Assembly (NCBI GenBank): GCA_046483795.1 | Contig: JAWOCM010000069.1 | Coordinates: 1,922 to 65,921 of the forward strand | Source of the DNA: Desulfuromonadales bacterium | GTDB lineage: Bacteria; Desulfobacterota; Desulfuromonadia; Desulfuromonadales; JAWOCM01 | Reading direction: 5' to 3' | DNA: 64,000 bases | Shown here: in pieces, positions 3,714 to 43,299 of the stretch | Numbering within the stretch: position 1 is the first letter of the stretch | Layout of the letters: each line of letters starts with the position of its first letter | The notes under the pieces: generated by a model | Told to the model about the DNA's origin: nothing | Databases searched by the model: none | Seen by the model: only the letters and a program-made list of their open reading frames with translations | Program-made: the position numbers and the translations under genes

Positions 3714-3970
3714 AGCTCGAAACTATAATCCTGGGCCTTGAAAATGTCAAGATTGGCAGCCTGTGTCGAATCGCAGGCGGTTGAAGGCTGGGGCGTATTT
3801 TACAGACAATTTTCCCTCTGAAGTGGGGTCTGAAAGCCTGAAGACTTGTCCCGAATGGCAAGGGCGGTTATGATGCAGCCGGGATTGCGATCAGAGGGTT
3901 GATCCCGCATGGGCTTAACTAGTATCAAGGCGTGCTTCAGGCGGTTTGGAATGATCCAGGAGAACCTCCC

Positions 3971-4435
3971 ATGAAACGCAAACCGATCATTGCCGTTATC
4001 GGAGCCGGTCAGGCCAGCCGCTCCGGGTATGAAAGGGCCCGTGAAGTCGGGCGGCAGATCGCAGCCAGCGGGGCCGTCCTTATTAGCGGAGGGCTCGGCG
4101 GTATCATGGAGGCGGCCAGTCGGGGGTGCTCGGAGGCCGGCGGGATGGTTGTCGGCATATTGCCGGGCTCCGAGGCCGAAGAGGCCAACGATTACGTCCA
4201 GATTGCCCTGCCGACCAACCTTGGACATGCCCGGAATATCGTTATCGCCCATTCGGCCAACGCCCTGGTTGCCGTCGAGGGGGAATACGGTACCCTTTCG
4301 GAAATGGCTGTGGCGTTGAAACTGGGACGGCCTGTCGTGACCCTTGATTGCCGCTGGGAAATCGAAGGTGCCGTACCCGCGGCCACTCCAGTCGAGGCAG
4401 TCAGTATTGCCCTGGAAAGGATGAATCATAAGTGA
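3971..4435 (+). CDS. TIGR00725-family (LOG/SLOG-like Rossmann) protein
   Basis: PIIAVIGAGQAS...GAVLISGGLGGIMEAASRGCSEAGGMVVGILPG...ALVAVEGEYGTLSE. The ATG at 3971 has a GGAGAA ribosome-binding site. Confidence 0.75.
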   Translation: MKRKPIIAVIGAGQASRSGYERAREVGRQIAASGAVLISGGLGGIMEAASRGCSEAGGMVVGILPGSEAEEANDYVQIALPTNLGHARNIVIAHSANALVAVEGEYGTLSEMAVALKLGRPVVTLDCRWEIEGAVPAATPVEAVSIALERMNHK

Positions 4436-8093: not shown

Positions 8094-8193
8094 TGGGTGA
8101 ATTTTCTTGCTGGAAATTCCCTCGAAGCATGTCATAATGTTAAGAAATTTAATTCGCCCGTACAATAACGTCAAAAATCCAAGGAGGTCAAAG

Positions 8194-8505
8194 ATGAAAA
8201 ATGTCATCAAAACACTCGTTACCTGCTCAGCCCTTCTGCTGCTGCTCTCGGCTTGTGCCGCCCCGTCTCTCAATGACGAGGATCGCAATCTTCTGAATCA
8301 GGCCATTGATTCCAGCCAGGATGCCCAGGAGGCTTCGACGCAGGCCACTGACTCGGCCAACCAGGCTGAGGAATCCGCCAACCAGGCGCAAAGTGCCGCT
8401 GACCGCGCAGAAGCTGCTGCAGTCAGAGCTGAAGATGGCGCAACGCAGGCTGAGGACAGCGCACAGAAGGCGGAAGAAGCTTTCGAGATGAGCCTGTCCA
8501 AGTAA
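8194..8505 (+). CDS. Alanine-zipper (Lpp/Braun-like) lipoprotein
   Basis: AAGGAGG ribosome-binding site 6 nt upstream of the ATG. Signal peptide with lipobox LLSAC. The mature part is an A/Q/E/S-rich coiled coil ending in ...MSLSK (C-terminal Lys). Confidence 0.75.
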   Translation: MKNVIKTLVTCSALLLLLSACAAPSLNDEDRNLLNQAIDSSQDAQEASTQATDSANQAEESANQAQSAADRAEAAAVRAEDGATQAEDSAQKAEEAFEMSLSK

Positions 8506-12344: not shown

Positions 12345-12499
12345 AAAATGGTTCCGGACTCTTGCCTGAGTGAACTTTGTTTGATTAAACTGTTGGAAGA
12401 AACAATGAAACAGTAGATAAGCCTGGCCTATACCCATGGCGGCGGTCGGTTCGCGTCCTTCCATCCTGAGAATCCGGTCTGGTCATCAGGGAGAGTCCT

Positions 12500-13495
12500 A
12501 TGTTCCACTGGCGAAAAGAGATAGAAAAGATTGATGTTCCGGCAGAGAGAATTGTGCATCTGATGCATTCTCTCGGGACCGTCCAGGTCGCTCATCCCGG
12601 CCATCCAACGCAGATGGCTGAAGCTTATCTCTGTGCGTTTGCGACCAAAAAAGGCTATCGTGTTTCGGCCGTCTTGAAAATGCTCTCAAGCCAGGTGCTC
12701 GCTTTTTACTTTAATGAGGGGGGAGAGTTACCGAATGCTGCCCTGGGAAAAGCTGTTGAAGAAGGCCGGCGATTTCTTGAGACAATGGGTTTTTTCCTTG
12801 CTGATGATGATGAATTTGCCAGGTTGAAAGGCGCAAAAAAGACTGAATACTGGAACAGGCATATCCTCAAAACGGGGGCATTCCGGGGCCGCGTTCTTCC
12901 GGAAGAAAAAACGGCTGCCGCCCCGCCGGCAGACAGCGAAGAACCGGAAAGAGTTGCGGAAGTTGAGGAATTAGAAGAGGTTGAAGACGTTGAGCAGATA
13001 GACGAGGCCGAAGAGAAGCGCAAGGCCGAAGAGGAGCGCAAGGCCGAGGAGAAGCGCAAGGCCGAGGAGAAGCGCAAGGCCGAAGAGGAGCGCAAGGCCG
13101 AGGAGGAGCGCAAGGCTGAAGAGGAGCGCAAGGCTGAAGAGGAGCGCAAGGCTGAAGAGGAGCGCAAGGCTGAAGAGGAGCGCAAGGCTGAGGAGGAGCG
13201 CAAGGCTGAGGAGGAGCGCAAGGCTGAGGAGGAGCGCAAGGCTGAGGAGGAGCGCAAGGCTGAGGAGGAGCGCAAGGCCGAGGAGAAACGCAAGGCCGAG
13301 GAGAAACGCAAGGCCGAGGAGAAACGCAAGGCCGAGGAGAAACGCAAGGCCGAGGAGAAACGCAAGGCCGAGAAGGAACGCAAGGCCGAGAAGGAACGCA
13401 AGGCCGAGAAGGAGCGCAAGGCCGAAGGGGCAGGGATGGAAAAAGAGAAAGAGCTTATTCGCGAGAAACTCGGTCGCTTATTGGCATCATTTTAG
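12500..13495 (+). CDS. Hypothetical protein: unrecognised about 165-aa N-terminal domain plus long ER/K (EERKAE)n repeat tract
   Basis: Long ORF ending 10 nt before the next gene. The C-terminal 140 aa are hexapeptide repeats. Confidence 0.6.
   Translation: MFHWRKEIEKIDVPAERIVHLMHSLGTVQVAHPGHPTQMAEAYLCAFATKKGYRVSAVLKMLSSQVLAFYFNEGGELPNAALGKAVEEGRRFLETMGFFLADDDEFARLKGAKKTEYWNRHILKTGAFRGRVLPEEKTAAAPPADSEEPERVAEVEELEEVEDVEQIDEAEEKRKAEEERKAEEKRKAEEKRKAEEERKAEEERKAEEERKAEEERKAEEERKAEEERKAEEERKAEEERKAEEERKAEEERKAEEERKAEEKRKAEEKRKAEEKRKAEEKRKAEEKRKAEKERKAEKERKAEKERKAEGAGMEKEKELIREKLGRLLASF
13009..13422 (+). repeat. About 23 tandem copies of an 18-bp in-frame unit (gag-gag/aaa-cgc-aag-gcy-gar)
   Basis: Direct reading shows blocks of EEKRKA, EEERKA (11 consecutive), EEKRKA (5) and EKERKA (3). 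The copies differ mainly at synonymous gcc/gct and gaa/gag positions. Confidence 0.95.
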
Positions 13496-13504
13496 GAGCT
13501 AGGT

Positions 13505-14266
13505 GTGAAAAATATTGTTTATTTCCCTTTATTATTTCTGCTGCTGGTATCTTTAATCGGTTGCAGCAGTTCCAGCAAATCCAATACGACCCAAAATGAA
13601 GCAGAAGTTCATTTTACGCTCGGCGTGTCTTACCTGCGCGAACCCAATCCGACTTTGGCTCTTAAGGAGTTCTTGAAGGCATCCGAGATCAAACCAGAGA
13701 GTCCGAAAATTCAGAATGGTCTCGGGCAGGCCTATTTTATGAAAAAAGCTTACGACAAGGCGGAAAAACACTTTCTCAGGGCCATTGAGCTGACACCGGA
13801 CAATCCACAGTTTCATAACAACCTGGCGGCGCTTTATCTGGACATGAACCGCTTTGATGATGCGATGGTCCATTTTCAGCAGGCTTCGGATAATCTCCTC
13901 TTCCAACGTCCGGAAGTCGCCCTGACAGGACTGGGTCTTGCTCATTACAAAAAAAGTAATTACCGTGAGGCTGCACGCGCTTACAAAAAAGCACTGGATG
14001 CGAATCCTCGCTATTACAGAGCCCACTTTCACCTCGGCGAGGCCTATTATGCTCTCGATAAAGTCGCTCTGGCTATTGACGAATTTCGTGAAGCCCTCCG
14101 GATTGTTCCCGAAAATCCGCGGATCCAGTATCGCCTGGCGTTGGCCCTTGTGAAGGCCAGAAAGACAGACGAAGCCAGGCTGCTTTTTCAGAAAATAGTC
14201 TCATCTGTCCCCAATTCGGAGCTCGGTCGGAATTCTCTCAACTACCTGCAAATCCTGGAAAAATAG
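13505..14266 (+). CDS. TPR-repeat lipoprotein, PilW/PilF-like (type IV pilus biogenesis/stability family)
   Basis: GTG start. Lipobox LVSLIGCSS. Repeated TPR motifs (AxxxFxxAlxxxPxxxxaxxxLg). Confidence 0.7.
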   Translation: MKNIVYFPLLFLLLVSLIGCSSSSKSNTTQNEAEVHFTLGVSYLREPNPTLALKEFLKASEIKPESPKIQNGLGQAYFMKKAYDKAEKHFLRAIELTPDNPQFHNNLAALYLDMNRFDDAMVHFQQASDNLLFQRPEVALTGLGLAHYKKSNYREAARAYKKALDANPRYYRAHFHLGEAYYALDKVALAIDEFREALRIVPENPRIQYRLALALVKARKTDEARLLFQKIVSSVPNSELGRNSLNYLQILEK

Positions 14267-14296
14267 TTTACTGGTCGGCGTTGACATGCTCCTTGC

Positions 14297-14326
14297 AAAG
14301 AGGCCTCTGAGAAGGGGCCTCTTTTG
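14297..14326 (+). terminator. Intrinsic terminator after the TPR gene
   Basis: agaggcc / ggcctct stem followed by tttt. Confidence 0.5.
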
Positions 14327-14359
14327 TGATGTATCGCCGCCGCGAGGAGAGACGGTTCT

Positions 14360-31100: not shown

Positions 31101-32741
31101 TTAGCCCAGACAGGCCTGCATATCCTCCTCAACGGTTCCGATGGGGGCTATGTTGAAATTCTCCACCAGAAAGTTGAGTACATTCGGGGTGACGAAAGCC
31201 GGCAGGGTCGGGCCGAGCTTGATGTCCTGAATCCCCAGAGACAGAAGGCTCAGAAGTACGACGACCGCCTTCTGCTCATACCAGGAGAGAATGAAGGAGA
31301 GCGGCAGGTCATTGACGCCGCAGTCGAAGGCGTCGGCCAGGGCCAGGGCGATCTGCACGGCGCTGTAGGCGTCGTTGCACTGTCCGACATCGAGCAGACG
31401 CGGGATGCCGCCGATATCGCCAAGGTCCATCTTGTTGAACCGGTACTTGCCGCAGGCCAGGGTGAGAATGACCGTGTTGCTCGGCAGCTTCTCGGCGAAT
31501 TCGGTATAGTAGTTGCGCCCCGGCTTGGCGCCGTCGCATCCGCCGATGACAAAAAAGCGCTGGATGTCTCCCGATTTGACGGCATCGATCACCTTGTCGG
31601 CCACACCAAGGACGGCATTGTGTCCGAACCCGACCGTGATGTCTTTGTCGGGTCTCTCCGGGACATTGTCGCTGGCGAGGGCCTTGTCGATGACCTCTGA
31701 AAAGTCCCATCCCTCGACATGCTTCACTCCGGGCCACTGCACCCGGCCCCAGGTGTAGAGACGATCCTTGTAGACATCGCCCGGACGCTGGATGCAGTTG
31801 GTGTTGAAGATGATGGCGCCGGGAAAATCGGGAAATTCCTTGATCTGGTTCTGCCACGCGCTGCCGTAATTGCCGACCAGGTGCGGATACTTCTTGAGGC
31901 CGGGATAGCCGTGGGCCGGCAGCATCTCGACGTGCGTATAGACGTTGATCCCCTTGCCCTCGGTCTGCTTGAGCAGTTCCTCGAGCATCCTCATGTCGTG
32001 ACCGGAGACGAGAATGCCTTTGCCGGCCTTCGTGCCGATATTGACCGGCGTCGGCACAGGGTGCTCGTAATTGTCGGTGTGGGCTTCGTTGAGCAGGCCC
32101 ATCCCCTTGATGTTCATCTTGCCGCATTCCATGGCAAGATTGACGTAGTCCATCAGGCCCAGATTCCTGTTGAGAATCGAGGCCAGCGCCTTGTGCAGGA
32201 AGCCGTAGATCTCGTCGTCGTCGCGGCCGAGAATATGGGCGTGGTCGGTGTAGGCCGACATCCCCTTGCAGCCGTAGAGAAGAATATCCTGGGCCGATTT
32301 GACATCGGGATCGATGCTCGGATCTTTCACACCGTGCTGGCGCCCGAGATGGATCATCTGCGCAATGCTCCCCGGTATCGGCCAGTCCTGCGCCGCTTCC
32401 GGAACGTCTCCGGCAAACGGTTCGCCATTGGCTTTCTCGAACATGGCTTTGGCCCGGTCCCGCATGTCGACGGTTTTCTCTGCCACCTTCGCGAGGTTTT
32501 CGGGATCGAAGTCCACATTGGTGACGGTACTGAACAGGGCCTCGACAAGATGGACATCGATATCCCTGTCGAACGCCCCTTTTCCCCGGGCCATGTGAGC
32601 CCAGAAGGACATTCCCTTGAGGCCCCAGACGATAAGATCCTGAAGGGCGGCAGCGTCGGGCTTCTTGCCGCAAACACCGATCTTGGTGCATCCCGTTCCA
32701 TTGGCCGCCTGCTCGCACTGATAGCAAAACATCTCTTCCAT
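31101..32741 (-). CDS. hcp: Hydroxylamine reductase / hybrid-cluster protein
   Basis: MEEMFCYQCEQAANGTGCTKIGVCGK... and C-terminal ...GQCNDAYSA...LSWYEQKAV. A GGAGGA ribosome-binding site lies 7 nt before the ATG at 32741; the 32780 start is unlikely. Confidence 0.95.
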   Translation of the reverse strand: MEEMFCYQCEQAANGTGCTKIGVCGKKPDAAALQDLIVWGLKGMSFWAHMARGKGAFDRDIDVHLVEALFSTVTNVDFDPENLAKVAEKTVDMRDRAKAMFEKANGEPFAGDVPEAAQDWPIPGSIAQMIHLGRQHGVKDPSIDPDVKSAQDILLYGCKGMSAYTDHAHILGRDDDEIYGFLHKALASILNRNLGLMDYVNLAMECGKMNIKGMGLLNEAHTDNYEHPVPTPVNIGTKAGKGILVSGHDMRMLEELLKQTEGKGINVYTHVEMLPAHGYPGLKKYPHLVGNYGSAWQNQIKEFPDFPGAIIFNTNCIQRPGDVYKDRLYTWGRVQWPGVKHVEGWDFSEVIDKALASDNVPERPDKDITVGFGHNAVLGVADKVIDAVKSGDIQRFFVIGGCDGAKPGRNYYTEFAEKLPSNTVILTLACGKYRFNKMDLGDIGGIPRLLDVGQCNDAYSAVQIALALADAFDCGVNDLPLSFILSWYEQKAVVVLLSLLSLGIQDIKLGPTLPAFVTPNVLNFLVENFNIAPIGTVEEDMQACLG

Positions 32742-33089
32742 TTGGCGTTCCTCCGTTTCGTAAGTGAAAATTAACCGCAAAGGGCTGCGTGATGATATAT
32801 CTATTTTTGAACTCCTAACAGATTTTCACCTATTGTCCACCTTCAGAAGCGGGGTCTTTTGAAAGAGTGCGGAATCTCGTTAGTGCATCATCGTTTCTGT
32901 AAAATTCACCGAGGCTGACAAAAAGAAAGGCCACGATTGTCCTCTTGGTCACTTTGCCGAGATTGACAGAAAGTGATTCCTGAATAAAATATAATAAAAT
33001 GGAGCGTCCATTCGGAAACTCCGGCCGGACGCAGGGTTGTTCCCATAGCAGAAAAGGGGTATACACAAAAAGCAGGGGGGTGAAAGGAT

Positions 33090-33293
33090 ATGAGTGAAAA
33101 TCCGCTTTACATCGAGGTCATTCTCGATGACGGACAGTATTCCCGGATATCTCCGCAAGCTCTGGACGCACTGCTCAAGCGCAAGCGAGTAAGAAAATTC
33201 CATCGCGCGGAGGGCTGGGCGGAGGTCGGAAGGTCTCCCTTGAGGAGCAAGCATGGAAATCCCTTCTATGCCGGTCCAGAGCGTCGCCACTGA
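33090..33293 (+). CDS. Small (67 aa) conserved hypothetical protein, resembles the Geobacter 'GSU3473 family' (assignment from memory)
   Basis: Purine-rich ribosome-binding site ggggggtgaaagg. The sequence PLYIEVILDDGQYSRISPQALDALLKRKRVRKFHRAEGWAEVGRSPLR...YAGPERR fits the pattern of that small-protein family. Confidence 0.5.
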   Translation: MSENPLYIEVILDDGQYSRISPQALDALLKRKRVRKFHRAEGWAEVGRSPLRSKHGNPFYAGPERRH

Positions 33294-33386
33294 TTTTTTT
33301 GCTTTCGCCCCGATATCCAGACATTCAGAATGCCCCCCGGGGAAATGTATGCTCTCGCCGTCGTCAGGGATACAAAGTTCACTGGA

Positions 33387-33422
33387 CAAAAAAGAGCGCG
33401 GGATCACTCCCGCGCTCTTTTT
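33387..33422. terminator. Bidirectional intrinsic terminator (hcp copy 2 / small ORF)
   Basis: aaaaaa-agagcgcggga-tcac-tcccgcgctct-tttt. The stem is identical to the one at 31035-31061. Confidence 0.8.
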
Positions 33423-33446: not shown

Positions 33447-35060
33447 TTAGCCGAGAATCTGTTTGAGGTCCTCTTCGGCCGTGCCGATCGGGCCGATATT
33501 GAAATTCTCGACCAGGTAGTTGAGCACGTTCGGGGTGACGAAGGCCGGCAGGGACGGGCCGATCTTGATGTCCTTGATCCCCAGGTGCAGCAGGGTCAGA
33601 AGGATGGCGACCGCCTTCTGTTCGTACCATGAGAGGATCATGGAAAGCGGCAGGTCGTTGACTCCGCATTCGAAGGCATCGGCCAGGGCCAGGGCGATCT
33701 GGATGGCACTGTAGGCATCGTTGCATTGTCCGACATCGAGAAGGCGCGGGATGCCGCCGATATCGCCAAGGTCCATCTTGTTGAAGCGGTACTTGCCGCA
33801 GGCCAGGGTGAGAATGACCGTGTCCTTCGGCGCTTTTTCGGCGAATTCGGTGTAATAGTTCCGTCCCGACTTGGCGCCGTCGCAGCCTCCGACGAGGAAA
33901 AAGTGCTTGATGTCGCCGGCCTTGACGGCATCGATCACCTTGTCGGCCACACCCAGCACCGCGTTGTGACCGAAGCCGGTGAGGATCTCCTGTCCCGGCT
34001 TCTCCTCGAATCCCTCGTACTCTTTCGCCTTGGCGATCACGTCGGAGAAGTCGAAGCCGTCGATGTGCTTGACGTCGGGCCACTGGGTCAGGCCCCAGGT
34101 GAAGAGGCGGTCCTTGTAGCTGTCAGCCGGGCGCTGGATGCAGTTGGTGTTGAAGATAATGGCGCCGGGGAACTCGGGAAGCTCCCTGGCCTGGTCCTGC
34201 CAGGCACCGCCGAAATTGCCGGCCAGGTGGTCGTACTTCTTCAATCCGGGATAGCCGTGGGCGGGAATCATCTCACCGTGGGTATAGATGTTGATGCCGG
34301 TGCCTTCAGTCTGCTTGAGCAGCTCTTCGAGCATTCGCAGATCGTGACCGGAGACGAGAATAGCCTTGCCGGCTTTGGTTCCGAGTTGAACCGGGGTCGG
34401 CTCGGGGTGGCCGTAAGCCTCCACGTGCGCCTTGTTGAGCAGTTCCATGGTGACCAGGTTGATGCGGCCGCATTCCATTGCCAGACCGACTGCGGTGTTC
34501 AGGTCCATCGACGTGTCGAGGGTGGCGGCCAGGGCCTTGTGGGTGAAGGCATAGACCTCTTCGCTTTCGCTGCCCAGGGTCAGAGCGTGCTCCGCGTAGG
34601 CGGCATAACCCTTGATGCCGTAGATGAGCATTTCGACGACCGACTTGACGTCGGGATCGAGCGTATCGTTCTTGACGCCGTGCTCCTCGCCCTGACGCAC
34701 GAGGCCGGTGGTGTCGTCGGCGGGCTGCCAGGAAGCGGCGGCCGGAACGGTCCCTGTTGCTGAGCCGGCCAAAGCCTTTGCAGTCTCGCGGATTTTAACG
34801 CTTTCACGCACGACACGGGCCACGTCTTCGGCGTCGAAGTCGACGTTGGTGACGGTGGTGAAGAGTCCCTTGATCATGAAGCGGTCAATCTCCGGGTCTT
34901 TTTTGCCTTCCTGCCGCGCTTTGTCGGCCCAGAACGCAACCCCCTTGAGACTGTAGATGAGAAGGTCCTGCAGGGCCGCGACATCGGGTTGTTTACCGCA
35001 GACCCCGATCTGGGTGCAGCCTGTGCCATGGGCGGCCTGCTCACATTGATAACAGAACAT
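33447..35060 (-). CDS. hcp: Hydroxylamine reductase / hybrid-cluster protein, second paralog
   Basis: MFCYQCEQAAHGTGCTQIGVCGK... An AAGGAGG ribosome-binding site precedes the ATG at 35060; the 35123 start adds an unlikely 21-aa extension. Confidence 0.95.
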   Translation of the reverse strand: MFCYQCEQAAHGTGCTQIGVCGKQPDVAALQDLLIYSLKGVAFWADKARQEGKKDPEIDRFMIKGLFTTVTNVDFDAEDVARVVRESVKIRETAKALAGSATGTVPAAASWQPADDTTGLVRQGEEHGVKNDTLDPDVKSVVEMLIYGIKGYAAYAEHALTLGSESEEVYAFTHKALAATLDTSMDLNTAVGLAMECGRINLVTMELLNKAHVEAYGHPEPTPVQLGTKAGKAILVSGHDLRMLEELLKQTEGTGINIYTHGEMIPAHGYPGLKKYDHLAGNFGGAWQDQARELPEFPGAIIFNTNCIQRPADSYKDRLFTWGLTQWPDVKHIDGFDFSDVIAKAKEYEGFEEKPGQEILTGFGHNAVLGVADKVIDAVKAGDIKHFFLVGGCDGAKSGRNYYTEFAEKAPKDTVILTLACGKYRFNKMDLGDIGGIPRLLDVGQCNDAYSAIQIALALADAFECGVNDLPLSMILSWYEQKAVAILLTLLHLGIKDIKIGPSLPAFVTPNVLNYLVENFNIGPIGTAEEDLKQILG

Positions 35061-35233
35061 GTTTTCCTCCTTGGTGGTTGGTGTGGTTTTGGATTTTTTG
35101 CTTAGAAAATCGAAAAGACCCATTTTGCTTCTCCTCTTCCTTTGTGGGAGTCCAGGTTTTTGGTAAGGTATAATTTACGTAATCAGCTCGTGTTGACTGT
35201 GCTGTACCTTAGAGCCTTTTCTGCACCGTCGCT

Positions 35234-35247
35234 TTGACGCAGGTCAA
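35234..35247. promoter_or_regulatory. Perfect FNR/CRP-family-type palindrome TTGAC-N4-GTCAA in the hcp2/asmA divergent region
   Basis: TTGACgcagGTCAA. On the minus strand it is followed by exactly 22 nt and then TAAGGT (35211-35206), which is class II (-41.5) geometry relative to hcp copy 2. Confidence 0.45.
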
Positions 35248-35362
35248 GATTCGAAAAAAAAAGAATAATAACAGCCATTGCCTGCCGGTCCTGACCATAG
35301 CAGCCTTGGCAGGAAGCCTTTTAGAAGTCCTGATTTTCATTCCAGACTGGAGAAGACTGCGC

Positions 35363-37750
35363 ATGCGTAACAAATGGGTGAAGATTTCGGCGATAATCGC
35401 CGGCGTCGTGATCGTCCTGATTGCGACTCTGCTTGTTCTCGCCAACATCCTGATTACTCCGGAGCGGGTGCGCTCGGCTGTTCTGCCGATTGCGGAGGAT
35501 TATCTGGATCGTCCTGTCGAGCTGGAAAAGATCGAGGTCGGTCTCTTCTCCGGTATCTCCTGCCGCGGTCTCGTCATCGGCGAAAAGCAGGGGGAGGGCA
35601 ATTTCATCGAGGCCGATACGCTGGTATTGCGCTATCGGTTCTGGCCCCTGCTGTTCGGTCGGGTGATGATCGACGAAGCGACTCTGAACCAGCCTGTTAT
35701 CCGCATGGTGCGCAATCCCGAAGGGCGCTTCAGTTTTGACGATCTGCTCGAATCGGGCGAAAGTGGAGGTGGCGAAGACACATCGGCCTCTTCACAAGGC
35801 GAGGACGGGTCACCGGTCGATCTGCTGGTGACCCACCTGACGGTCCGCAAAGGTCAACTCGAATTTACCGATCATGCTGTTCGCCCGGATCAGGCGGTCG
35901 TGACGCGCCTTGCCGATCTGAATCTTTCGGCACAGGCCTTGTCGCTGGGAAAAGAGTTCCCCCTCACCCTCGACTTTCTGCTCAACGATGCGCCGGTGTC
36001 GTGGGACGGATCGGTCGATCCGGCTGGCAGTGGGATCGCCGGTCAGCTTCAGGTTTCGGGGCTTGCGGGTGCTCCCCTGGCTCCCTATGTGGACGACGCC
36101 TTCCCCGGGGAACTCCGGTCCTTTCAACTCGATGCCGATCTGCATCTCGACGGGGATCGGCAGGCAATGACGAGCCGCGGGAATATCCTCCTTGATAAGA
36201 TCGGCATGACCCTCGAGGCCCTGCCCGAGGCTCCGATCGAAGATGCGCGTCTGGAACTCGATCACGATCTGACTGTCAATCTGGAGCAGGAAAAAGTCAC
36301 CATTCGTTCATTTCGCGCTGAATATAACCGGCTGGAACTCCAGACGCAGGATGCCCTTTTCGATTACAGTGCTACTCCTGAACTCGATATGGGACTGCAT
36401 CTGCCGAAGCGTTCCGCATCGGATCTCGTCTCTGCGCTGCCGGCGAGACTGGCGAAGCAGATGGACGATCTCGCCCCTTCCGGAAACATTGAAGCAAAGG
36501 TGCAACTTTCCGGGAAGGTATCGAGCCTGAAAACTCTGATTGCCGACGGATCCATTATCCTGGAGCAGGCAGGTCTGAGCGTCGGTCATCTGAAACCGCG
36601 GCTGAGCGGTACCGTTCATCTGGAGAAGGACGAACTGAGTGGCCGAAAAATGCAGCTGGATGCGGGCGGGAGCCGATTTGTTTTCGACCTCACAGCGCAG
36701 AGACTCTTCGATGAAATCAAATATGTCACAACGCAGATTCAATCTGACGAAGTCGATTTTACAGCCTTTACGCCACCCGAGAATGAACCGTCCGGTTCGT
36801 CAAAACGCAACACTGCGGGAGCTGGCGGTGCCGAAAAGGGTGGAAATCAGGTCGGTCCCTTCAAACTGCCTCTGGAGTTGGAGGGCACAATCCGGATCGC
36901 AGAGGGGCGATACAAGAATCTCGATCTGAAAGATATCCGGCTCGACTGGAATTTGAATGACAATCACCTTCAATTGGAGGATATCGCAGCCGTCGTTGCC
37001 TCGGGAAGTCTGGCAGGAAAGGCGAATATCGATCTGGGGCGCAAGGGACTCCGATACGATGCGGATATCCAGGTGAAAGAGGTTGTTGCCAACGAGTTGG
37101 TCACCGCCCTGGCTCCCCGGGCAGCCGAAACAGTTTTCGGAGAGTTGAACCTGTCGTCGAATCTGAACGGTTCCGGGACACAGATTTCGGAGATCAAGCG
37201 AAATCTGGTCGGTGAAGGAAACTTTGCAATCCTCCAGGGCAGATTGACCGGAGCCGGCGTCATGAAGGGTCTGGCCGACTTCCTCGATCTGAAGGACTTG
37301 CGTGTTTTCCGCTTTGATCGCGGGGACGGCACCTTCAATATCAGCGGTGGCGACCTTTTTCTTGATGCGACCTTCGACGGTTCGAAAGCCCGCCTGCAGC
37401 CCAACGGTCGCATCGGACTGGATCATTCGCTCGATCTGTCGGTTAAGACATTTCTCTCCCCTCAGAACACGAAAAAGTTGGCCGGAAGGGGAACCCTGGG
37501 CGAAGTGATCGCCGATGATCAGGGGTGGGGCCTGGTGCCCCTCAAGATCACCGGCAAACTGGCGGATCCTTCCGTTTCCCTGGATCGAAAGGCCTTGTCC
37601 GAGCAGGTCAAAAAGGGGGCCGAAAGAAAGTTGCGGGAGAAGGTTCAGGAGAAGATATTCGGAAAAAATGGCGAATCGGAAGAAAATGGCGAGGAAAAAC
37701 CGGAAAAGAAATTACTTGAGGATACCCTGCGGGGAATTTTCAGAAATTGA
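35363..37750 (+). CDS. AsmA family outer-membrane biogenesis protein
   Basis: N-terminal anchor KISAIIAGVVIVLIATLLVLA, an AsmA N-domain, and a C-terminal AsmA_2-like region (GEGNFAILQGRLTG...GTFNISGGDLFLD). Start at the ATG at 35363. Confidence 0.85.
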   Translation: MRNKWVKISAIIAGVVIVLIATLLVLANILITPERVRSAVLPIAEDYLDRPVELEKIEVGLFSGISCRGLVIGEKQGEGNFIEADTLVLRYRFWPLLFGRVMIDEATLNQPVIRMVRNPEGRFSFDDLLESGESGGGEDTSASSQGEDGSPVDLLVTHLTVRKGQLEFTDHAVRPDQAVVTRLADLNLSAQALSLGKEFPLTLDFLLNDAPVSWDGSVDPAGSGIAGQLQVSGLAGAPLAPYVDDAFPGELRSFQLDADLHLDGDRQAMTSRGNILLDKIGMTLEALPEAPIEDARLELDHDLTVNLEQEKVTIRSFRAEYNRLELQTQDALFDYSATPELDMGLHLPKRSASDLVSALPARLAKQMDDLAPSGNIEAKVQLSGKVSSLKTLIADGSIILEQAGLSVGHLKPRLSGTVHLEKDELSGRKMQLDAGGSRFVFDLTAQRLFDEIKYVTTQIQSDEVDFTAFTPPENEPSGSSKRNTAGAGGAEKGGNQVGPFKLPLELEGTIRIAEGRYKNLDLKDIRLDWNLNDNHLQLEDIAAVVASGSLAGKANIDLGRKGLRYDADIQVKEVVANELVTALAPRAAETVFGELNLSSNLNGSGTQISEIKRNLVGEGNFAILQGRLTGAGVMKGLADFLDLKDLRVFRFDRGDGTFNISGGDLFLDATFDGSKARLQPNGRIGLDHSLDLSVKTFLSPQNTKKLAGRGTLGEVIADDQGWGLVPLKITGKLADPSVSLDRKALSEQVKKGAERKLREKVQEKIFGKNGESEENGEEKPEKKLLEDTLRGIFRN

Positions 37751-37806
37751 CAACCGGTCTGACCAAATGCTAATCAATTGTTATTCTTACAGGAGGAGTT
37801 TATTTC

Positions 37807-38307
37807 ATGACAGGAATTGAAGATTTCAGCGGTTTTGAAGTGATCAGGGCAGCCATGGAGGTGGAGAAGAAGGGGCATCGGTTTTACACGACCATGGCCG
37901 AGCGGGCTGACAATGCGATCACCAAGGAAGTATTCTCCTGGCTTGCCCAGGACGAAGTGCAACACTTGAAAACCCTCGAAGAGCTCGTGCCCAAATATCA
38001 GGAAGGGGCCTTCTGGGATGCGGAAGAGGAGTTTCTGCCCTATCTGCGGCGTTTTTCCGAGCAAGAGATTTTTCCCTCTCCCGAGCGACTGGAATCGGTC
38101 CTCAAGGAGAAGGATTCCGATCTCAAGGCTCTGGAGCTGGCTATCCATGCCGAAGAGAAATTCGCCGAATATTTTCACAGAGCTGAGGACAAGGCCCGGA
38201 CCGAGGAAGGCAAGGACGCTTTTTCCTGGCTGGCTGCGGAGGAAGATCGCCACGCCGCAGTTCTCATTGAGCGCCGGGACAAGATAAAAAAAGCCCTCCA
38301 TGGCTGA
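37807..38307 (+). CDS. Ferritin-like di-iron (rubrerythrin-family) domain protein
   Basis: Two E...ExxH pairs: EVEKKG / QDEVQHL and AEEKFAEYF / AEEDRHA. Confidence 0.75.
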   Translation: MTGIEDFSGFEVIRAAMEVEKKGHRFYTTMAERADNAITKEVFSWLAQDEVQHLKTLEELVPKYQEGAFWDAEEEFLPYLRRFSEQEIFPSPERLESVLKEKDSDLKALELAIHAEEKFAEYFHRAEDKARTEEGKDAFSWLAAEEDRHAAVLIERRDKIKKALHG

Positions 38308-38325
38308 CTGACAGAGAGGAGGACG

Positions 38326-38901
38326 ATGATGCCGACAAAAGTCCCCGAATTCGCCAAGGGTGACCTGATGATGATTGTCGATGTGCAGAAAGATTTCTGC
38401 CCCGGCGGTGCTCTTCCCATAGAGGGGGGGGACGAGATCGTTCCGGTCATCAATCTCTGGATGCGGGCCGCCCTTGATGACGGTATCCCCGTTTATGTCT
38501 CCCGCGACTGGCATCCCCGATGTCATGTCAGCTTTGAGCAGAGCGGAGGAAAGTGGCCGCCGCACTGCATTCAGGATACTGACGGCGCCCGGTTTCATAC
38601 CGGCCTCGAAGTGCCCCACGATGCGGTGCTGATCTCCAAGGGAACCCGGTTCGACAAGGATCAGAATTCGGTATTCGACCAGACCGGTCTGGCAGAATGG
38701 CTGCGCCGGCATGACATCGAAAGAATTTTTATCGGCGGGCTGGCACAGGATGTCTGCGTGCTTGCCTCTGTGCTGGATGGTCTGGATGCCGGGTTCGACA
38801 TGCAACTGATCAAAAACGCGACCAGGCCTGTCGATCCGGAGATGGGCGACGAAGCGATGGAAAAAATGCGGCAAAAAGGGTGCTCGTTTATCGGGGCGTG
38901 A
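38326..38901 (+). CDS. pncA: Nicotinamidase / isochorismatase-family hydrolase
   Basis: MMIVDVQKDFCPGGALP...SRDWHP...HC...FIGGLAQDVCV. Confidence 0.85.
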   Translation: MMPTKVPEFAKGDLMMIVDVQKDFCPGGALPIEGGDEIVPVINLWMRAALDDGIPVYVSRDWHPRCHVSFEQSGGKWPPHCIQDTDGARFHTGLEVPHDAVLISKGTRFDKDQNSVFDQTGLAEWLRRHDIERIFIGGLAQDVCVLASVLDGLDAGFDMQLIKNATRPVDPEMGDEAMEKMRQKGCSFIGA

Positions 38902-40651: not shown

Positions 40652-42184
40652 TTATTCCGGCGCGATCCGGGGAAAAAGCGGTGGTGCTTTCTCGACCCTG
40701 GTGCCCGGCTCCAGTACGCCCCAGTCGATTCCCTTTGCCAGGGGGCGTTCGATGCTTTCCACAGCCAGGGTTTTAAGAATGCTCTTTCCGCTGTGGGGCA
40801 TGAAGGGGGTGATGAGCAGGGCGATGACCCTCAGCCCTTCGATCAGGTTGTACATGATCGTTCCCAGACGCTCCTTCTGGCTTTCGTCCTTGGCCAGGGT
40901 CCAGGGCGCGGTCTCGTCGATATACTTGTTGGCGGCGCTGATCAGTTCCCAGACCGATTGCAGGGCCTTGTTGAAGGCCAGATCGTCCATGTGCGCATCA
41001 AAGGCGTTGAACGCCAGCTTGAATCGCAGCGTGAATTTCTCGTCGAGCTCGTTCTCTTCCGCCGGTGCAGGGAGCACGCCCTGGAAGTACTTTCCGAGCA
41101 TCGCCGTCGAGCGGCTGAGCAGGTTTCCGAGATCGTTGGCAAGATCGGAGTTGATGCGATTGATCAGCGCCGAATGGGAAAAGTCGCCGTCGAGGCCGAA
41201 GGGGACTTCCCGCAAGAGGAAGTAACGAATGGCATCGACCCCGTATTTCTCGACCAGCATGTTCGGCTCGACGACATTGCGAAGGCTCTTGCTCATTTTC
41301 TGGCCTTCGACAGTCCACCAGCCGTGCGCGAAGATCTTCTTCGGCAGGGGAAGTCCGGCCGCCATCAGGAAGGTCGGCCAGTATACGGTGTGGAACCGCA
41401 GAATGTCCTTGCCGATCACGTGCGCATCTGCCGGCCAGAACTTGGCGACATTTCCGTCGGGATCATCCGGGTAACCCAGAGCGGTGATGTAGTTGGTCAG
41501 GGCATCGAACCACACATAAATGACGTGTTTTTCATCTCCCGGCACCGGAATGCCCCAGGAGAACGTCGTGCGCGAAATGGAGAGGTCGCGAAGGCCCTCC
41601 CTGACGAAGCTGAGAATTTCGTTGCGGCGACTGCGGGGCTGAATGAAGTCCGGATTTTCCTCGATGTGCCTGGCCAGCTGCTCCTGGTATTTGCTCATGC
41701 GGAAGAAGTAGGAGGACTCCTTGAGTTTGTCCGTCGGTCGGCCGCAGTCGGGGCAGGTCCCGTCGATCAGGTTGGTCTCAGTCCAGAAGGTTTCACAGGG
41801 AGTGCAGTACCAGTCCTCGTATTCTCCCAGGTAGATATCGCCCTTCGCCTGAATCTTGCGGAAAAGATCATGAACTCCCTTGAGATGCCTCTCCTGGCTG
41901 GTGCGGATAAAGTCGTCATGGGATATCTCCAGTTTGTCCCACAGGGACTGAAACCGCTTGACCACACGGTCAGCCAGTTCAAGAGGGGTTTCTCCCTGTG
42001 CTTGCGCGGCCTTCTCGACTTTCTGACCGTGCTCGTCCGTCCCGGTAAGGAAGAAGACATCGAAGCCGCGAGAGCGCTTGTAGCGTGCCAGAACGTCGCA
42101 GGCCAGCGTGGTATAGGCGTGGCCGATGTGAGGGACATCGTTGACGTAATAAATAGGGGTCGTGACGTAGAAGCTTTCGCTCAT
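40652..42184 (-). CDS. metG: Methionine-tRNA ligase (short form)
   Basis: FYVTTPIYYVNDVPHIGHAYT...CPDCG...KMSKSLRN. Confidence 0.95.
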   Translation of the reverse strand: MSESFYVTTPIYYVNDVPHIGHAYTTLACDVLARYKRSRGFDVFFLTGTDEHGQKVEKAAQAQGETPLELADRVVKRFQSLWDKLEISHDDFIRTSQERHLKGVHDLFRKIQAKGDIYLGEYEDWYCTPCETFWTETNLIDGTCPDCGRPTDKLKESSYFFRMSKYQEQLARHIEENPDFIQPRSRRNEILSFVREGLRDLSISRTTFSWGIPVPGDEKHVIYVWFDALTNYITALGYPDDPDGNVAKFWPADAHVIGKDILRFHTVYWPTFLMAAGLPLPKKIFAHGWWTVEGQKMSKSLRNVVEPNMLVEKYGVDAIRYFLLREVPFGLDGDFSHSALINRINSDLANDLGNLLSRSTAMLGKYFQGVLPAPAEENELDEKFTLRFKLAFNAFDAHMDDLAFNKALQSVWELISAANKYIDETAPWTLAKDESQKERLGTIMYNLIEGLRVIALLITPFMPHSGKSILKTLAVESIERPLAKGIDWGVLEPGTRVEKAPPLFPRIAPE

Positions 42185-42243
42185 GCTTCTCTCCTGTACG
42201 TGAAAGTCAGTGTGGTCGTAGCAATCAAAAACGCGGTGATCGA

Positions 42244-43299
42244 TTATTTTGAGGGAGAACGATCCGGGGGGGCACTTTGTTCCCCTCCCTTTCTACGGGG
42301 TTTTCTCCTGCGTCGACGGCGTTTTTTCTTCTCCGGTTTTTCCTCCTGCTTCACCTCCGGTTTACCGGTCGGGGCAGGGGCTTTTGTCTTTTCGTCGCTT
42401 TCTTCAGCAGGTCGGCCCTGTTTCTTCTGCTCCCTGCGAGGAGGGGCACTCGGCCGGGATTTCTTCTCTTCCTTTTCAGCCTCCCGGATTGGCGGCGCCT
42501 CTGCGTGCTCCCTGATTTCCTCAAGGGTCAGCTCGACGATCGAATTATCTGCTGTTCGAACCCGGACCGTCTGGTTGAGTACATTCTGTTTGATGACTTC
42601 AGCCTCTTTGCCCGCGTAGCGGATTTTTTTTCCGCTTTTAGGAAGCGCTTTCTTCAGGGAGCAGTAGGTTTCGAATTCATATCCCAGGCAGCACAGAAGG
42701 CGTCCGCACTGACCGGAAATTTTACTCGGATTCAATGCCAGACCCTGCTCCTTGGCCATTTTGACCGAGACGGGCTGAAAATCACGCAAAAAAGTGCAGC
42801 AACAGAGCTCGCGACCGCAAATGCCTATGCCACCGGTGATCTTGGCCTCGTCGCGAACCCCGATCTGCCGCATTTCAATACGGGTATGGAAGTGCTGGGC
42901 CAGGTCCTTGACCAGATCCCTGAAATCGATGCGGCCGTCAGCGGTGAAATAGAAAACGATCTTGGAACCGTCGAAAACATATTCGGCACGGACCAGTTTC
43001 ATCTCCATTTTGCGTTCCTGAATACGCTGCATGCAGTAGCGGTAAGCCGCTTCCTCGCGCTCGAGGAATTTGTCTGCCGCATCCAGATCTTTTTCAGTGG
43101 CCTTGCGCTGGACACCCTTGAGTGAATTGGGCAGTTGTTTTTTGGGGACCTCCCGCGGAGCAATGACGACGGTCCCCAGCGTGCGTCCGCGGTCGGTTTC
43201 CACAACCACAGCGTCTCCGGTTTCCAGTTCAAGATCCCCCGCATGAAAATCGTAAAGCTTTCCTGCCGTGCGGAATTTTATCGAGACGATACGTATCAT
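42244..43299 (-). CDS. PSP1 domain protein (RicT/YaaT-like) with long Lys/Arg/Glu-rich C-terminal tail
   Basis: IVSIKFRTAGKLYDFHAGDLELETGDAVVVETDRG...CGRELCCCTFL...CGRLLCCLGYE. The tail is ...KPEKKKRRRRRRKPRRKGG. Confidence 0.85.
   Translation of the reverse strand: MIRIVSIKFRTAGKLYDFHAGDLELETGDAVVVETDRGRTLGTVVIAPREVPKKQLPNSLKGVQRKATEKDLDAADKFLEREEAAYRYCMQRIQERKMEMKLVRAEYVFDGSKIVFYFTADGRIDFRDLVKDLAQHFHTRIEMRQIGVRDEAKITGGIGICGRELCCCTFLRDFQPVSVKMAKEQGLALNPSKISGQCGRLLCCLGYEFETYCSLKKALPKSGKKIRYAGKEAEVIKQNVLNQTVRVRTADNSIVELTLEEIREHAEAPPIREAEKEEKKSRPSAPPRREQKKQGRPAEESDEKTKAPAPTGKPEVKQEEKPEKKKRRRRRRKPRRKGGEQSAPPDRSPSK

Follow-up and report, generated by a model that had tools for sequence, protein, structure and literature searches.

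TolA domain II is a long Ala/Lys/Glu-rich helix that spans the periplasm, and Lpp, YscP and FliK are length-variable repeat proteins or protein rulers. To our knowledge, most of the ER/K single alpha-helices that have been characterised are eukaryotic, and the DNA that encodes them is not repetitive. ER/K helices act as semi-flexible spacers with a persistence length of ~15 nm, and the AEEEKRK design is an experimentally validated single alpha-helix (PMC5347031). FtsZ combines a globular core with a variable disordered linker and a conserved C-terminal peptide that docks on partners (bioRxiv 10.1101/171280; PMC9586301). Here, we describe gene X (12500–13495, plus strand), an open reading frame with homologs that encodes a protein of 331 aa within the stretch of 64,000 nucleotides that was analysed as a whole (hereafter, the window). 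Within this gene, an 18-bp unit appears to have given rise very recently to a bacterial ER/K helix, in place of a linker that relatives keep short and disordered.

An in-frame array of 23 units of 18 bp

Analysis of the window with TRF revealed a single array at 13005–13425, with a period of 18, 23.4 copies, 96% matches, no indels and a score of 604. The remaining TRF rows in the 64 kb comprised only two arrays of ~2 copies each, which places the array in gene X far beyond chance. Read in frame with the ORF (12500–13495), the array resolves into exactly 23 units over 414 bp (13007–13420, plus strand, residues 170–307), whose products are AEEERK (12 units), AEEKRK (eight units) and AEKERK (three units), with the amino-acid variants following one another in blocks of 1, 1, 2, 11, 5 and 3. 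The synonymous codons are grouped along the array as well. GCT is used in nine consecutive units, of which the first four carry GAA and the next five GAG, while the AAA codon marks the five-unit AEEKRK block and GAA is found in two of the three AEKERK units. An earlier note, made from the letters of the sequence, had described 23 copies of 18 bp over 414 bp, the same succession of variant blocks and a blockwise clustering of synonymous choices as the signature of local expansion, and TRF and the unit table bore out all of these; its EEERKA, EEKRKA and EKERKA units are the present AEEERK, AEEKRK and AEKERK in another register.

The near-identical units are arranged head to tail, and their length of 18 bp is a multiple of 3 nt, as in length-variable in-frame repeats. 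The array could therefore change its length step-wise by slippage, and the encoding of the tract by near-identical 18-bp DNA repeats further indicates that it is evolutionarily young. On the complementary strand, the reverse complement of the array gives rise to a 237-aa S/A/L/R-rich ORF (12706–13419, minus strand), which had been considered spurious and which we likewise exclude as a gene. The plus-strand product has homologs that match on either side of the array, and conservation follows the plus strand at both array flanks, so the minus-strand frame is a by-product.

Similar arrays are found in two close relatives, L027 (88% nucleotide identity) and L002 (94%), whose contigs break off within the repeats, so that unit sequences and not copy counts can be compared. 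The Arg-Lys pair is encoded by CGC-AAG in all 23 window units and by CGA-AAG in every unit seen of L027 and L002, and the arrays of the relatives also contain EEDRKA units. The use of a different Arg codon in similar arrays of such close relatives shows that the array turns over, and implies that it does so rapidly. ER/K-type arrays are kept in at least two further close lineages, so the rod itself could be selected and not merely tolerated.

A three-part protein family with an ER/K linker in the window

Gene X is preceded by a Shine-Dalgarno-like GGGAGAG (12489–12495), while the 155-nt gap upstream of X yielded no sigma-70-like promoter. An exhaustive HMMER search for homologs returned 134 representatives at 50% clustering, 76 of them with E ≤ 1e-10, and every named representative belongs to the Desulfuromonadales or the Geobacteraceae. 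The best homologs reached phmmer E-values down to 2e-30, with 43–46% identity and a domain of ~125 aa. A profile search added a further 136 family members, all annotated as hypothetical and all without Pfam domains. In both family alignments, the window sequence is aligned over its whole length, and the members share a layout in which an alpha/beta N-terminal domain (~126 aa) is followed by a hypervariable linker and then by a strictly conserved C-terminal peptide. The orthologs of Geopsychrobacter electrodiphilus and Desulfuromusa kysingii measure 189 aa and 162 aa, respectively.

The family is undescribed. Pfam, NCBIfam and PADLOC returned no family for the N-terminal domain of X or for 41 family members, a word-index protein search with residues 1–152 gave no matches, and a sequence profile search of X against the PDB gave nothing below E=0.19. 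PHROGs returned one weak match (E=0.0006), which is compositional and lies over the charged tract. There was no match to plasmids by megablast and none to Rfam in the window, and the exact gene X protein was absent from the assembly collection. The only curated model matched by X was TolA (TIGR02794, 32.8 bits over residues 136–311 against a cut-off of 59.45). We rejected X as a TolA, as the match is below the cut-off and compositional, and X has neither an N-terminal membrane anchor nor the TolA C-terminal domain.

AlphaFold2, run with a 68-sequence alignment, folds residues 1–126 (12500–12877, plus strand) into six beta-strands followed by three helices, with 10-residue block-mean pLDDT values of 79–97, mostly above 90. 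Conserved motifs in this domain include LPGxPxQ and F(A)ESMGF. Foldseek gave DcrB as the best match in the PDB, at a level that is not significant (E=0.15, TM 0.29), and nothing significant in BFVD; the long helix of the model may hamper a match of the domain. The earlier note had proposed an unrecognised N-terminal domain of ~165 aa. Pfam, NCBIfam, the PDB and Foldseek gave no significant match for it, and its folded part is shorter, at ~126 aa, with residues 127–169 modelled as disordered.

Residues 127–169 (12878–13006, plus strand), assigned from pLDDT and composition as a linker of ancestral type, are acidic with some Pro and Ala, carry a net charge of −13 over residues 136–169 and resemble the linkers of orthologs. 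The AlphaFold2 pLDDT falls below 50 over residues 126–167, which are predicted to be disordered. In 195 short-form family members, the linker has a median length of 25 aa (5th–95th percentile 16–111) and a varied composition, while the linker of the window X extends to 187 aa and is the only mixed-charge (ER/K) linker among the ~195. Unrelated linker repeats are present in other lineages, as (AEPVK)n in P0029 and (ESRPV)n in P0138, and also include (EEV)n in L032 and (AEEIE[QR])x9 in L034. In addition to the short forms, long-form paralogs contain two copies of the X domain joined by a coiled coil of 300–800 aa (hhalign probability 99.8%). As these paralogs carry the domain at both coiled-coil ends, it has repeatedly been placed at the ends of long spacers. 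A profile search for the long-form paralogs returned three fragments only. In L052, the gene of a long-form paralog is split and adjoins transposases.

The C-terminal tail of X, AEGAGMEKEKELIREKLGRLLASF (residues 308–331, 13421–13492, plus strand), was delimited with the 68-sequence alignment and a tail profile of 195 members. It ends in LGRLLASF, in agreement with the family terminal peptide LGR[FL][LF]AS[LMF]-COOH. All sequences of the 68-sequence alignment share G325, and conservation reaches at least 90% at L324, A329 and S330.

Between the linker and the tail, the 138 residues of the tract comprise 58 Glu, 34 Lys, 23 Arg and 23 Ala (83% E/K/R, the rest Ala), with a net charge of −1 and a length of ~20.7 nm at 0.15 nm per residue. 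Per tract residue, we counted 1.08 favourable and 0.22 like-charge i+3/i+4 pairs, and the same metric yields 1.38 and 0 for the AEEEKRK design and 0.49 and 1.44 for (EEKK)n (PMC5347031, PMC5378345). Ala, the sole apolar residue, occurs once per six residues and takes up angular positions of 0, 120 and 240 degrees, which leaves the tract without a hydrophobic seam and with a hydrophobic moment of 0.00. The sequence properties by which ER/K SAH/CSAH are recognised, namely an E/K/R tract of at least ~40 residues, dense i+3/i+4 pairs and no hydrophobic seam, were all found here. AlphaFold2 models residues 170–330 as one helix, with block-mean pLDDT values of 93–98 over residues 181–300. Charged repeats are often drawn as long helices by AlphaFold2, and its confidence is therefore not proof of a helix. 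Taken together, the sequence metrics and the model favour a single alpha-helix, and the most likely fold of the tract is that of a monomeric ER/K single alpha-helix, ~21 nm in length. The domain–rod–tail architecture that had been put forward is borne out by AlphaFold2 and by the family alignment. The suggested rod of about 20 nm agrees with this predicted length, but the separation of the two ends would not be rigid, as ~43 disordered residues precede the rod. DNA binding by the tract, as in the CAF-1 KER helix (PMC10335832), was rejected in view of its net charge of −1 and its 42% Glu.

Neighbouring genes and competing readings of X

A gap of 9 nt separates the stop codon of X from the GTG start codon (13495 to 13505) of a gene for a TPR lipoprotein of 253 aa (13505–14266, plus strand), which was recognised by Pfam TPR families, a signal peptide and the lipobox LIGC, and which matches MFO7983018.1 of a Desulfuromonadales bacterium MAG exactly. 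The TPR lipoprotein gene lies directly downstream of X in 22 of the 22 loci with enough downstream DNA, mostly with an estimated gap between about −4 and 80 nt, and the gene order of the window (ndk, rlmN, mtnP, X, TPR, PNP) is the same in all 22, with mtnP(-pfkB). Relatives also have a Zn-ribbon response regulator gene downstream. Because this ndk-rlmN-mtnP-X-TPR-PNP block is syntenic across one order, the adjacency of X and the TPR gene is not independent evidence of a common function, and it may represent phylogenetic inertia. The TPR lipoprotein scored 111.6 bits against PilW (TIGR02521, cut-off 154) and 95.8 bits against Tgl (NF033762, cut-off 225). Both scores are below the NCBIfam cut-offs and, with the lipobox and TPR repeats present, point to a resemblance to the PilW/PilF and Tgl pilotins only. 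The earlier note had placed a PilW/PilF-like TPR lipoprotein gene 10 nt downstream of X and had asked whether orthologs of X always precede it; the 22 loci answered this in the affirmative and the tight adjacency held, while the gap was corrected to 9 nt and the likeness of the neighbour to PilW/PilF is a resemblance only. A Pfam scan of 34 window ORFs revealed no type IV pilus gene, and a search of the TPR protein against genome contigs gave hits to generic TPR proteins of unrelated phyla only. X itself has no signal peptide or transmembrane segment, and its N-terminal residues belong to strand 1 in the AlphaFold2 fold.

On balance, we lean towards a reading in which X is a two-ended cytoplasmic adaptor or tether with a drifting spacer, which is here an ER/K rod. 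The cytoplasmic location, the binding of a partner by the tail, the tether role and the single-helix fold are features that we infer. The two functional ends would be the ~126-aa alpha/beta domain and the ~20-residue C-terminal peptide, and the sequence and length of the spacer between them would drift freely. In the window's lineage, slippage or unequal exchange of the 18-bp unit would have generated the 138-residue AEE[E/K]RK tract, and its folding as a monomeric ER/K single alpha-helix would replace the short, disordered spacer that is usual in the family with a semi-flexible rod ~21 nm long, or ~1.4 persistence lengths. Such a rod may extend the reach between the two ends of X and reduce their effective local concentration. 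The tract would be constrained to remain in frame, charged and soluble, with its exact length probably unconstrained; the only exchanges seen among its units are between E and K. X and the TPR lipoprotein gene would share a transcript and would probably also be coupled in translation.

Several other explanations were weighed against this account, two of which concern the array and the tract themselves. The array might be real while its window length is only what the assembly estimated, with copies collapsed or expanded, as three contigs from other samples (L001, L002 and L027) begin or stop within the array and identical five-unit blocks give rise to exact repeats of 86 nt. We consider this unlikely, as the array is composed of nine distinct unit types that are ordered and joined at unique block junctions, and its longest exact internal repeat is those 86 nt, so that it can be resolved by longer reads or k-mers (150-nt reads or k above 86 can cross it). 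Moreover, L001 is 100% identical to window positions 13384–14294 and confirms the 3′ junction in an independent sample. A dimeric or trimeric coiled coil, acting as an oligomerisation domain, would be in line with the A/L/E/K-rich classical coiled coils that the long-form paralogs have between their two domain copies, and charged helices are often mistaken for coiled coils. Here, however, the lone apolar residue, the missing seam and the zero hydrophobic moment, together with a six-residue periodicity that is out of register with heptads, led us to reject this highly improbable option.

The remaining explanations concern what the rod and the tail would do. As a length-tuned ruler, the rod would fix a distance within a machine of the envelope or pilus to which the TPR lipoprotein also belongs, with the copy number tuning this distance between strains. 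The rod-like tract of ~21 nm, the tight pairing with the TPR lipoprotein gene, the retention of ER/K arrays in close relatives despite DNA turnover and an in-frame 18-bp unit that permits steps of 0.9 nm would all suit such a device. However, the linkers of same-locus orthologs range over 16–111 aa (5th–95th percentile) with unrelated and mostly disorder-type compositions, and the 43 disordered residues that join the helix to the N-terminal domain mean that the end-to-end distance of X is not rigidly set; together, these two properties make a precise ruler unlikely. X also lacks an export signal while the TPR protein is a lipoprotein, the scores of that neighbour lie under both the PilW and Tgl cut-offs, and the scanned window ORFs include no pilus gene. 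The ruler idea of the earlier note is thereby weakened, with no ER/K linker in the other 195 short-form members and linkers that are mostly short and varied, and we regard it as improbable. It is very doubtful that X and the TPR lipoprotein form a Desulfuromonadales-specific two-gene module across the envelope, with a spacer selected as tunable in length and stiffness and a rod changing in slippage steps of 0.9 nm. The tail, in turn, might be a membrane-targeting amphipathic helix similar to those of MinD and FtsA, which would make X a peripheral inner-membrane protein with its N-terminal domain up to ~20–25 nm into the cytoplasm, and which is compatible with the spacer reading. Across 195 members, the tail displays a heptad-like hydrophobic stripe (positions −19, −16, −12, −8, −5, −4 and −1) flanked by conserved Arg, it is located at the extreme C-terminus behind a flexible or variable linker, and its hydrophobic moment of 0.33–0.43 compares with 0.27 and 0.57 for the targeting sequences of MinD and FtsA. 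Nevertheless, the tail is conserved in individual residues, with an invariant Gly, a near-invariant Arg (position −6), Ala (−3) and Ser (−2), which is more typical of a protein-docking peptide such as the FtsZ C-terminal peptide than of a helix that binds lipid generically, and the coiled-coil paralogs have a second domain in place of the tail. A membrane helix is therefore possible but doubtful.

Relation to known systems

X represents a known ER/K motif in an uncharacterised family and is not a new kind of system, and the finding has no bearing on a long-standing open question. It provides a natural comparison of a disordered with a rod-like spacer within one orthologous protein, as well as a simple hexad, (AEEERK)n, for testing heptad design rules. 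It also points to an unannotated family that is widespread in the Desulfuromonadales and Geobacteraceae and whose coiled-coil paralogs bear the domain at each end.

Read as a two-ended adaptor or tether, X shares with FtsZ a three-part logic of a conserved fold, a length-variable linker and a short conserved terminal helix or peptide. The two are nevertheless unrelated in sequence and fold, and the linker of the window X is a predicted helical rod, whereas that of FtsZ is a disordered chain. With TolA, X has in common a charged, Ala-containing helical spacer. The array of X is like Lpp, YscP and FliK in its near-identical units of a multiple of 3 nt, but the linker length of X orthologs is not conserved, which argues against a ruler-like constraint. 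The closest likeness is to the ER/K helices of myosins VI and X and of the AEEEKRK and AEEEKKK designs, with which the tract shares a composition of E/K/R and Ala, an i+3/i+4 charge network and the absence of a seam, and its 138 residues fall inside the 40–200 residues reported for such helices; its expected role, that of a semi-flexible spacer, is likewise the same. In contrast to the heptad and octad ER/K helices, the tract has a period of six and forms fewer salt-bridge pairs (1.08 per residue vs 1.38 in the AEEEKRK design). It further differs from the known ER/K helices in that it is bacterial and predicted to be cytoplasmic, its helicity is a prediction, and its relatives use short disordered linkers in the same place.

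The 18-bp array and its assembly support

Tandem Repeats Finder placed one array at 13005-13425 (period 18, 23.4 copies, 96% matches, no indels, score 604), which is far beyond chance, since the only other arrays in the whole 64 kb window were two of about two copies each. The array resolves into exactly 23 units (13007-13420) in frame with gene X, an ORF at 12500-13495 (+) with an ATG start and GGGAGAG upstream. The encoded hexads are AEEERK (12 units), AEEKRK (8) and AEKERK (3), in amino-acid blocks of 1, 1, 2, 11, 5 and 3, as an earlier note on this DNA had described. At the DNA level, nine unit types can be distinguished, and adjacent units agree in their synonymous codons: nine units in a row have GCT, the five-unit AEEKRK block has AAA, and two AEKERK units have GAA. 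Such agreement between neighbours is what local stepwise duplication leaves behind, and bears out the blockwise expansion proposed in that note. The variable positions of the unit comprise three synonymous and two non-synonymous sites, both of the latter being E/K exchanges, and the 138 array codons contain no other residue type, no stop and no frameshift. As so few events underlie it, this restriction to E/K change argues weakly for constraint. A 237-aa ORF on the complementary strand (12706-13419, -), previously called fake, was rejected as a mirror artefact: homology lies on the plus strand, where it flanks the array on both sides.

The longest exact repeat inside the array is 86 nt, so that longer reads or k-mers are able to span the array. 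In three other samples, contigs break off inside it: L001 (SRR31818008) begins within the last array units and matches window positions 13384-14294 at 100% identity, L002 (SRR34348026; 94% identical) begins inside its own array, and L027 (Ga0102925_1026985; 88% identical) terminates inside its own. These contigs lend independent support to the array and to its 3' junction; the count of 23 is that of the window assembly. Because contigs of three public metagenome samples break inside the array, public protein sets systematically lack X-like genes or list them in truncated form; the 331-aa X protein itself has no exact match in a collection of 15 billion proteins.

The X family and its linker

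Residues 1-152 of X had no match in Pfam or NCBIfam, and a word-index protein search with them found nothing. HMMER, run exhaustively on 1.84 billion cluster representatives, matched 134 proteins at E<=1e-3 (a set that includes P0097, apparently spurious); of these, 76 reached E<=1e-10, and the best showed 43-46% identity over residues 1 to ~140. A profile search added 136 proteins, none with a Pfam domain; the named ones, all annotated "hypothetical protein", belong to Geopsychrobacter, Desulfuromusa or genomes of uncultured relatives. Comparison of 41 members with Pfam and NCBIfam, together with a PDB profile search, PADLOC and PHROGs, returned nothing consistent. On sequence grounds, X is assigned to a real but undescribed family.

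Alignments revealed three parts: an N-terminal domain of ~125 aa, a linker of highly variable length and composition, and a C-terminal peptide. Residues F2, Q29, Q38, G75, G89, F92, E94, M96, G97, F98 and L100 of the domain are invariant in 68 sequences, and the peptide follows [ED][ED]Lxx[LR]Rx[RK]xLxxLGR[FL][LF]AS[MLF]-COOH, in which Gly (G325 in X) is invariant. Using the 68-sequence alignment, AlphaFold2 modelled the domain at 10-residue block-mean pLDDT of 79-97, mostly above 90, with predicted strands at 2-8, 18-24, 28-30, 38-48, 53-61 and 67-72 and helices at 79-95, 104-108 and 112-126. Foldseek detected no structural neighbour at a significant level (best PDB match DcrB, E=0.15, TM 0.29; nothing in BFVD); the long helix of the model used as query may have made it less sensitive.

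The domain also occurs in multi-domain paralogs, none annotated (P0088, P0095, P0098, P0116, P0117, P0120, P0121, P0124, P0128, P0130, P0134, P0135; P0008, P0075, P0090), where profile-profile comparison supports homology (probability 99.8%, E=1.3e-28). In some, 570-1081 aa long, an A/L/E/K-rich coiled coil of 300-800 residues separates two X-type domains, one at either terminus, and the tail is missing; further paralogs string together three or four domain copies and finish with the tail motif. A Geobacteraceae MAG is the source of one long paralog. In contig L052 (7001-8981), a long-form paralog is divided between neighbouring ORFs of 172 and 483 aa that directly follow two DDE transposase genes; a frameshift or a misassembly may account for the split.

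Among 195 short-form members (one domain, linker and canonical tail), the linker has a median length of 25 aa (5th-95th percentile 16-111, maximum 224) and a mean composition of ~12% acidic, 14% basic, 14% Pro and 14% Ala. That of X, with 187 aa, 40% acidic and 33% basic, is the sole mixed-charge linker among them, and its residues 127-169, just upstream of the array, resemble an ordinary family linker (net charge -13 over 136-169). Elsewhere, unrelated tandem repeats fill the same linker: (AEPVK)n in P0029, (ESRPV)n in P0138, (EEV)x8.6 from a 9-bp unit in locus L032 (775-851) and (AEEIE[QR])x9.1 from an 18-bp unit in locus L034 (3249-3412). Since several lineages carry repeats there, the linker is a recurrent site of repeat expansion. 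The L034 unit begins GCCGAGGAR, as the window unit does, and a common ancestry of the two 18-bp units is possible.

ER/K-type arrays were identified in two close relatives. L027 (RlmN 96%, MtnP 94% and X N-terminal domain 86% identical to the window) holds at least 5.7 units of AEEDRK, and the array end of L002, whose TPR protein is 92% identical, reads ...ERKAEEERKA. Arg-Lys is encoded by CGC-AAG in all 23 window units and by CGA-AAG in every unit seen in L027 and L002. As this difference is fixed across all units, each lineage's array was rebuilt or homogenised since divergence, with its ER/K character kept. From these comparisons, we interpret the ER/K tract as a lineage-specific filling of the hypervariable linker.

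A predicted single alpha-helix

The tract is 83% E/K/R, the remainder Ala, with a net charge of -1. Counted per residue, it has 1.08 favourable i+3/i+4 pairs and 0.22 like-charge ones; computed alike, the AEEEKRK design, a stable monomeric helix by experiment (PMC5347031), scores 1.38 and 0, and (EEKK)n, reported as non-helical (PMC5347031, PMC5378345), 0.49 and 1.44. A coiled coil would be the alternative helical arrangement. Owing to the six-residue period, Ala, the only apolar residue, falls at 0, 120 and 240 degrees (hydrophobic moment 0.00), and the lack of a hydrophobic seam argues against it. The K:R ratio of 34:23 lies on the favourable side, because Arg-rich designs reportedly aggregate and Lys-rich ones do not (PMC5347031). 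In line with a single helix, AlphaFold2 modelled residues 170-330 as one continuous helix (block-mean pLDDT 93-98 over 181-300) behind a segment, 126-167, with pLDDT below 50; the helix, unlike the N-terminal domain, was also modelled without the alignment. The ER/K single helix claimed in the earlier note is therefore supported as a prediction. At 0.15 nm per residue, the tract measures 20.7 nm, ~1.4 times the persistence length of ~15 nm quoted for such helices (PMC5347031), and would be a semi-flexible rod rather than a rigid bar. We consider it a predicted ER/K single-helix spacer. Its bacterial origin, hexad periodicity, encoding by DNA repeats and place in an undescribed family make it unusual.

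Genomic context and a proposed adaptor role

The window gene order runs DHH phosphoesterase, AmiC-type amidase, RNase PH, Ham1/RdgB, small lipoprotein, L,D-transpeptidase (- strand), ndk, rlmN, mtnP, X, TPR lipoprotein (13505-14266, +), purine nucleoside phosphorylase (PNP), response regulator, Usp, hybrid kinase, FAD protein and HD protein. The block is common to Geopsychrobacter electrodiphilus and several multi-megabase and MAG contigs; in those relatives (including L023-L026 and L053), an extra gene, pfkB, separates mtnP from X, and one for a Zn-ribbon response regulator separates the TPR gene from PNP. The corresponding window gaps (12345-12499 and 14267-14359) contain neither, and pfkB is missing in L027 too. 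Nucleoside-salvage genes (mtnP, pfkB, PNP) surround X and the TPR gene.

The small predicted lipoprotein (8194-8505, +, in ORF 8107-8505, MKNVIKTLVTCSALLLLLSAC...) has no Pfam match; its mature part is repetitive, Ala/Gln/Glu/Ser-rich and probably helical, with a 21-bp repeat (2.2 copies, 8341-8387), and is reminiscent of Lpp-type helical lipoproteins. Elsewhere, the window encodes two hybrid-cluster (Prismane) proteins (31101-32780, -; 33447-35123, -) with an unannotated 152-aa ORF between them (32949-33407, -), an 838-aa AsmA/DUF748-family protein (35234-37750, +) and a CheA-type histidine kinase with Hpt, H-kinase_dim, HATPase_c and CheW domains (51134-53161, +). No Pfam match was found for ORFs 37774-38874 (-, 366 aa) and 40793-42619 (+, 608 aa) at an E cut-off of 1e-6, or for 3800-4429 (-, 209 aa) at 1e-5.

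An orthologous TPR lipoprotein gene (38-51% identical, nearly all with signal peptide and Cys) lies directly 3' of X in 22/22 genome and metagenome loci with enough downstream DNA, at a gap of about -4 to 80 nt in most and often 10 nt. Given this constant adjacency and small gap, the two genes are likely co-transcribed and translationally coupled. As synteny within a single order covers the whole block, finding the two genes side by side gives no independent support for a common function. X lacks both a signal peptide and a transmembrane segment, its N-terminus forming strand 1 of the predicted fold, whereas the TPR protein is exported.

The earlier interpretation, a rod that might serve as an envelope or pilus-associated ruler or tether, stands in part: the helix and the TPR linkage hold, and the ruler and pilus roles do not. 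Some Gammaproteobacteria have an ndk-rlmN-pilW arrangement. With 111.6 for PilW (curated cut-off 154) and 95.8 for Tgl (curated cut-off 225), the TPR protein falls short of both models, and no pilus gene occurs among 34 window ORFs scanned. Against a ruler stand the 16-111 aa range (5th-95th percentile) and varied composition of orthologous linkers, and exact length is probably not critical. The ER/K arrays persisting in close relatives leave room for selection on the rod itself.

We propose that X could act as a two-ended adaptor: its N-terminal domain would bind one target, and its C-terminal peptide a second one, more likely a protein than the membrane. The repeated placement of the domain at the ends of long spacers fits such a bridging or tethering role. 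The linker would need to be soluble and non-sticky, nothing more, which would explain its drift and repeat expansions. In the window lineage, expansion of the 18-bp unit would have yielded an ER/K helix that lengthens the reach to ~21 nm, plus a 43-residue flexible joint, and reduces the effective concentration between the two ends. A parallel is the FtsZ C-terminal peptide, a docking peptide that follows a variable linker (bioRxiv 10.1101/171280; PMC9586301): the X tail likewise displays residue-specific conservation and is preceded by a variable linker.
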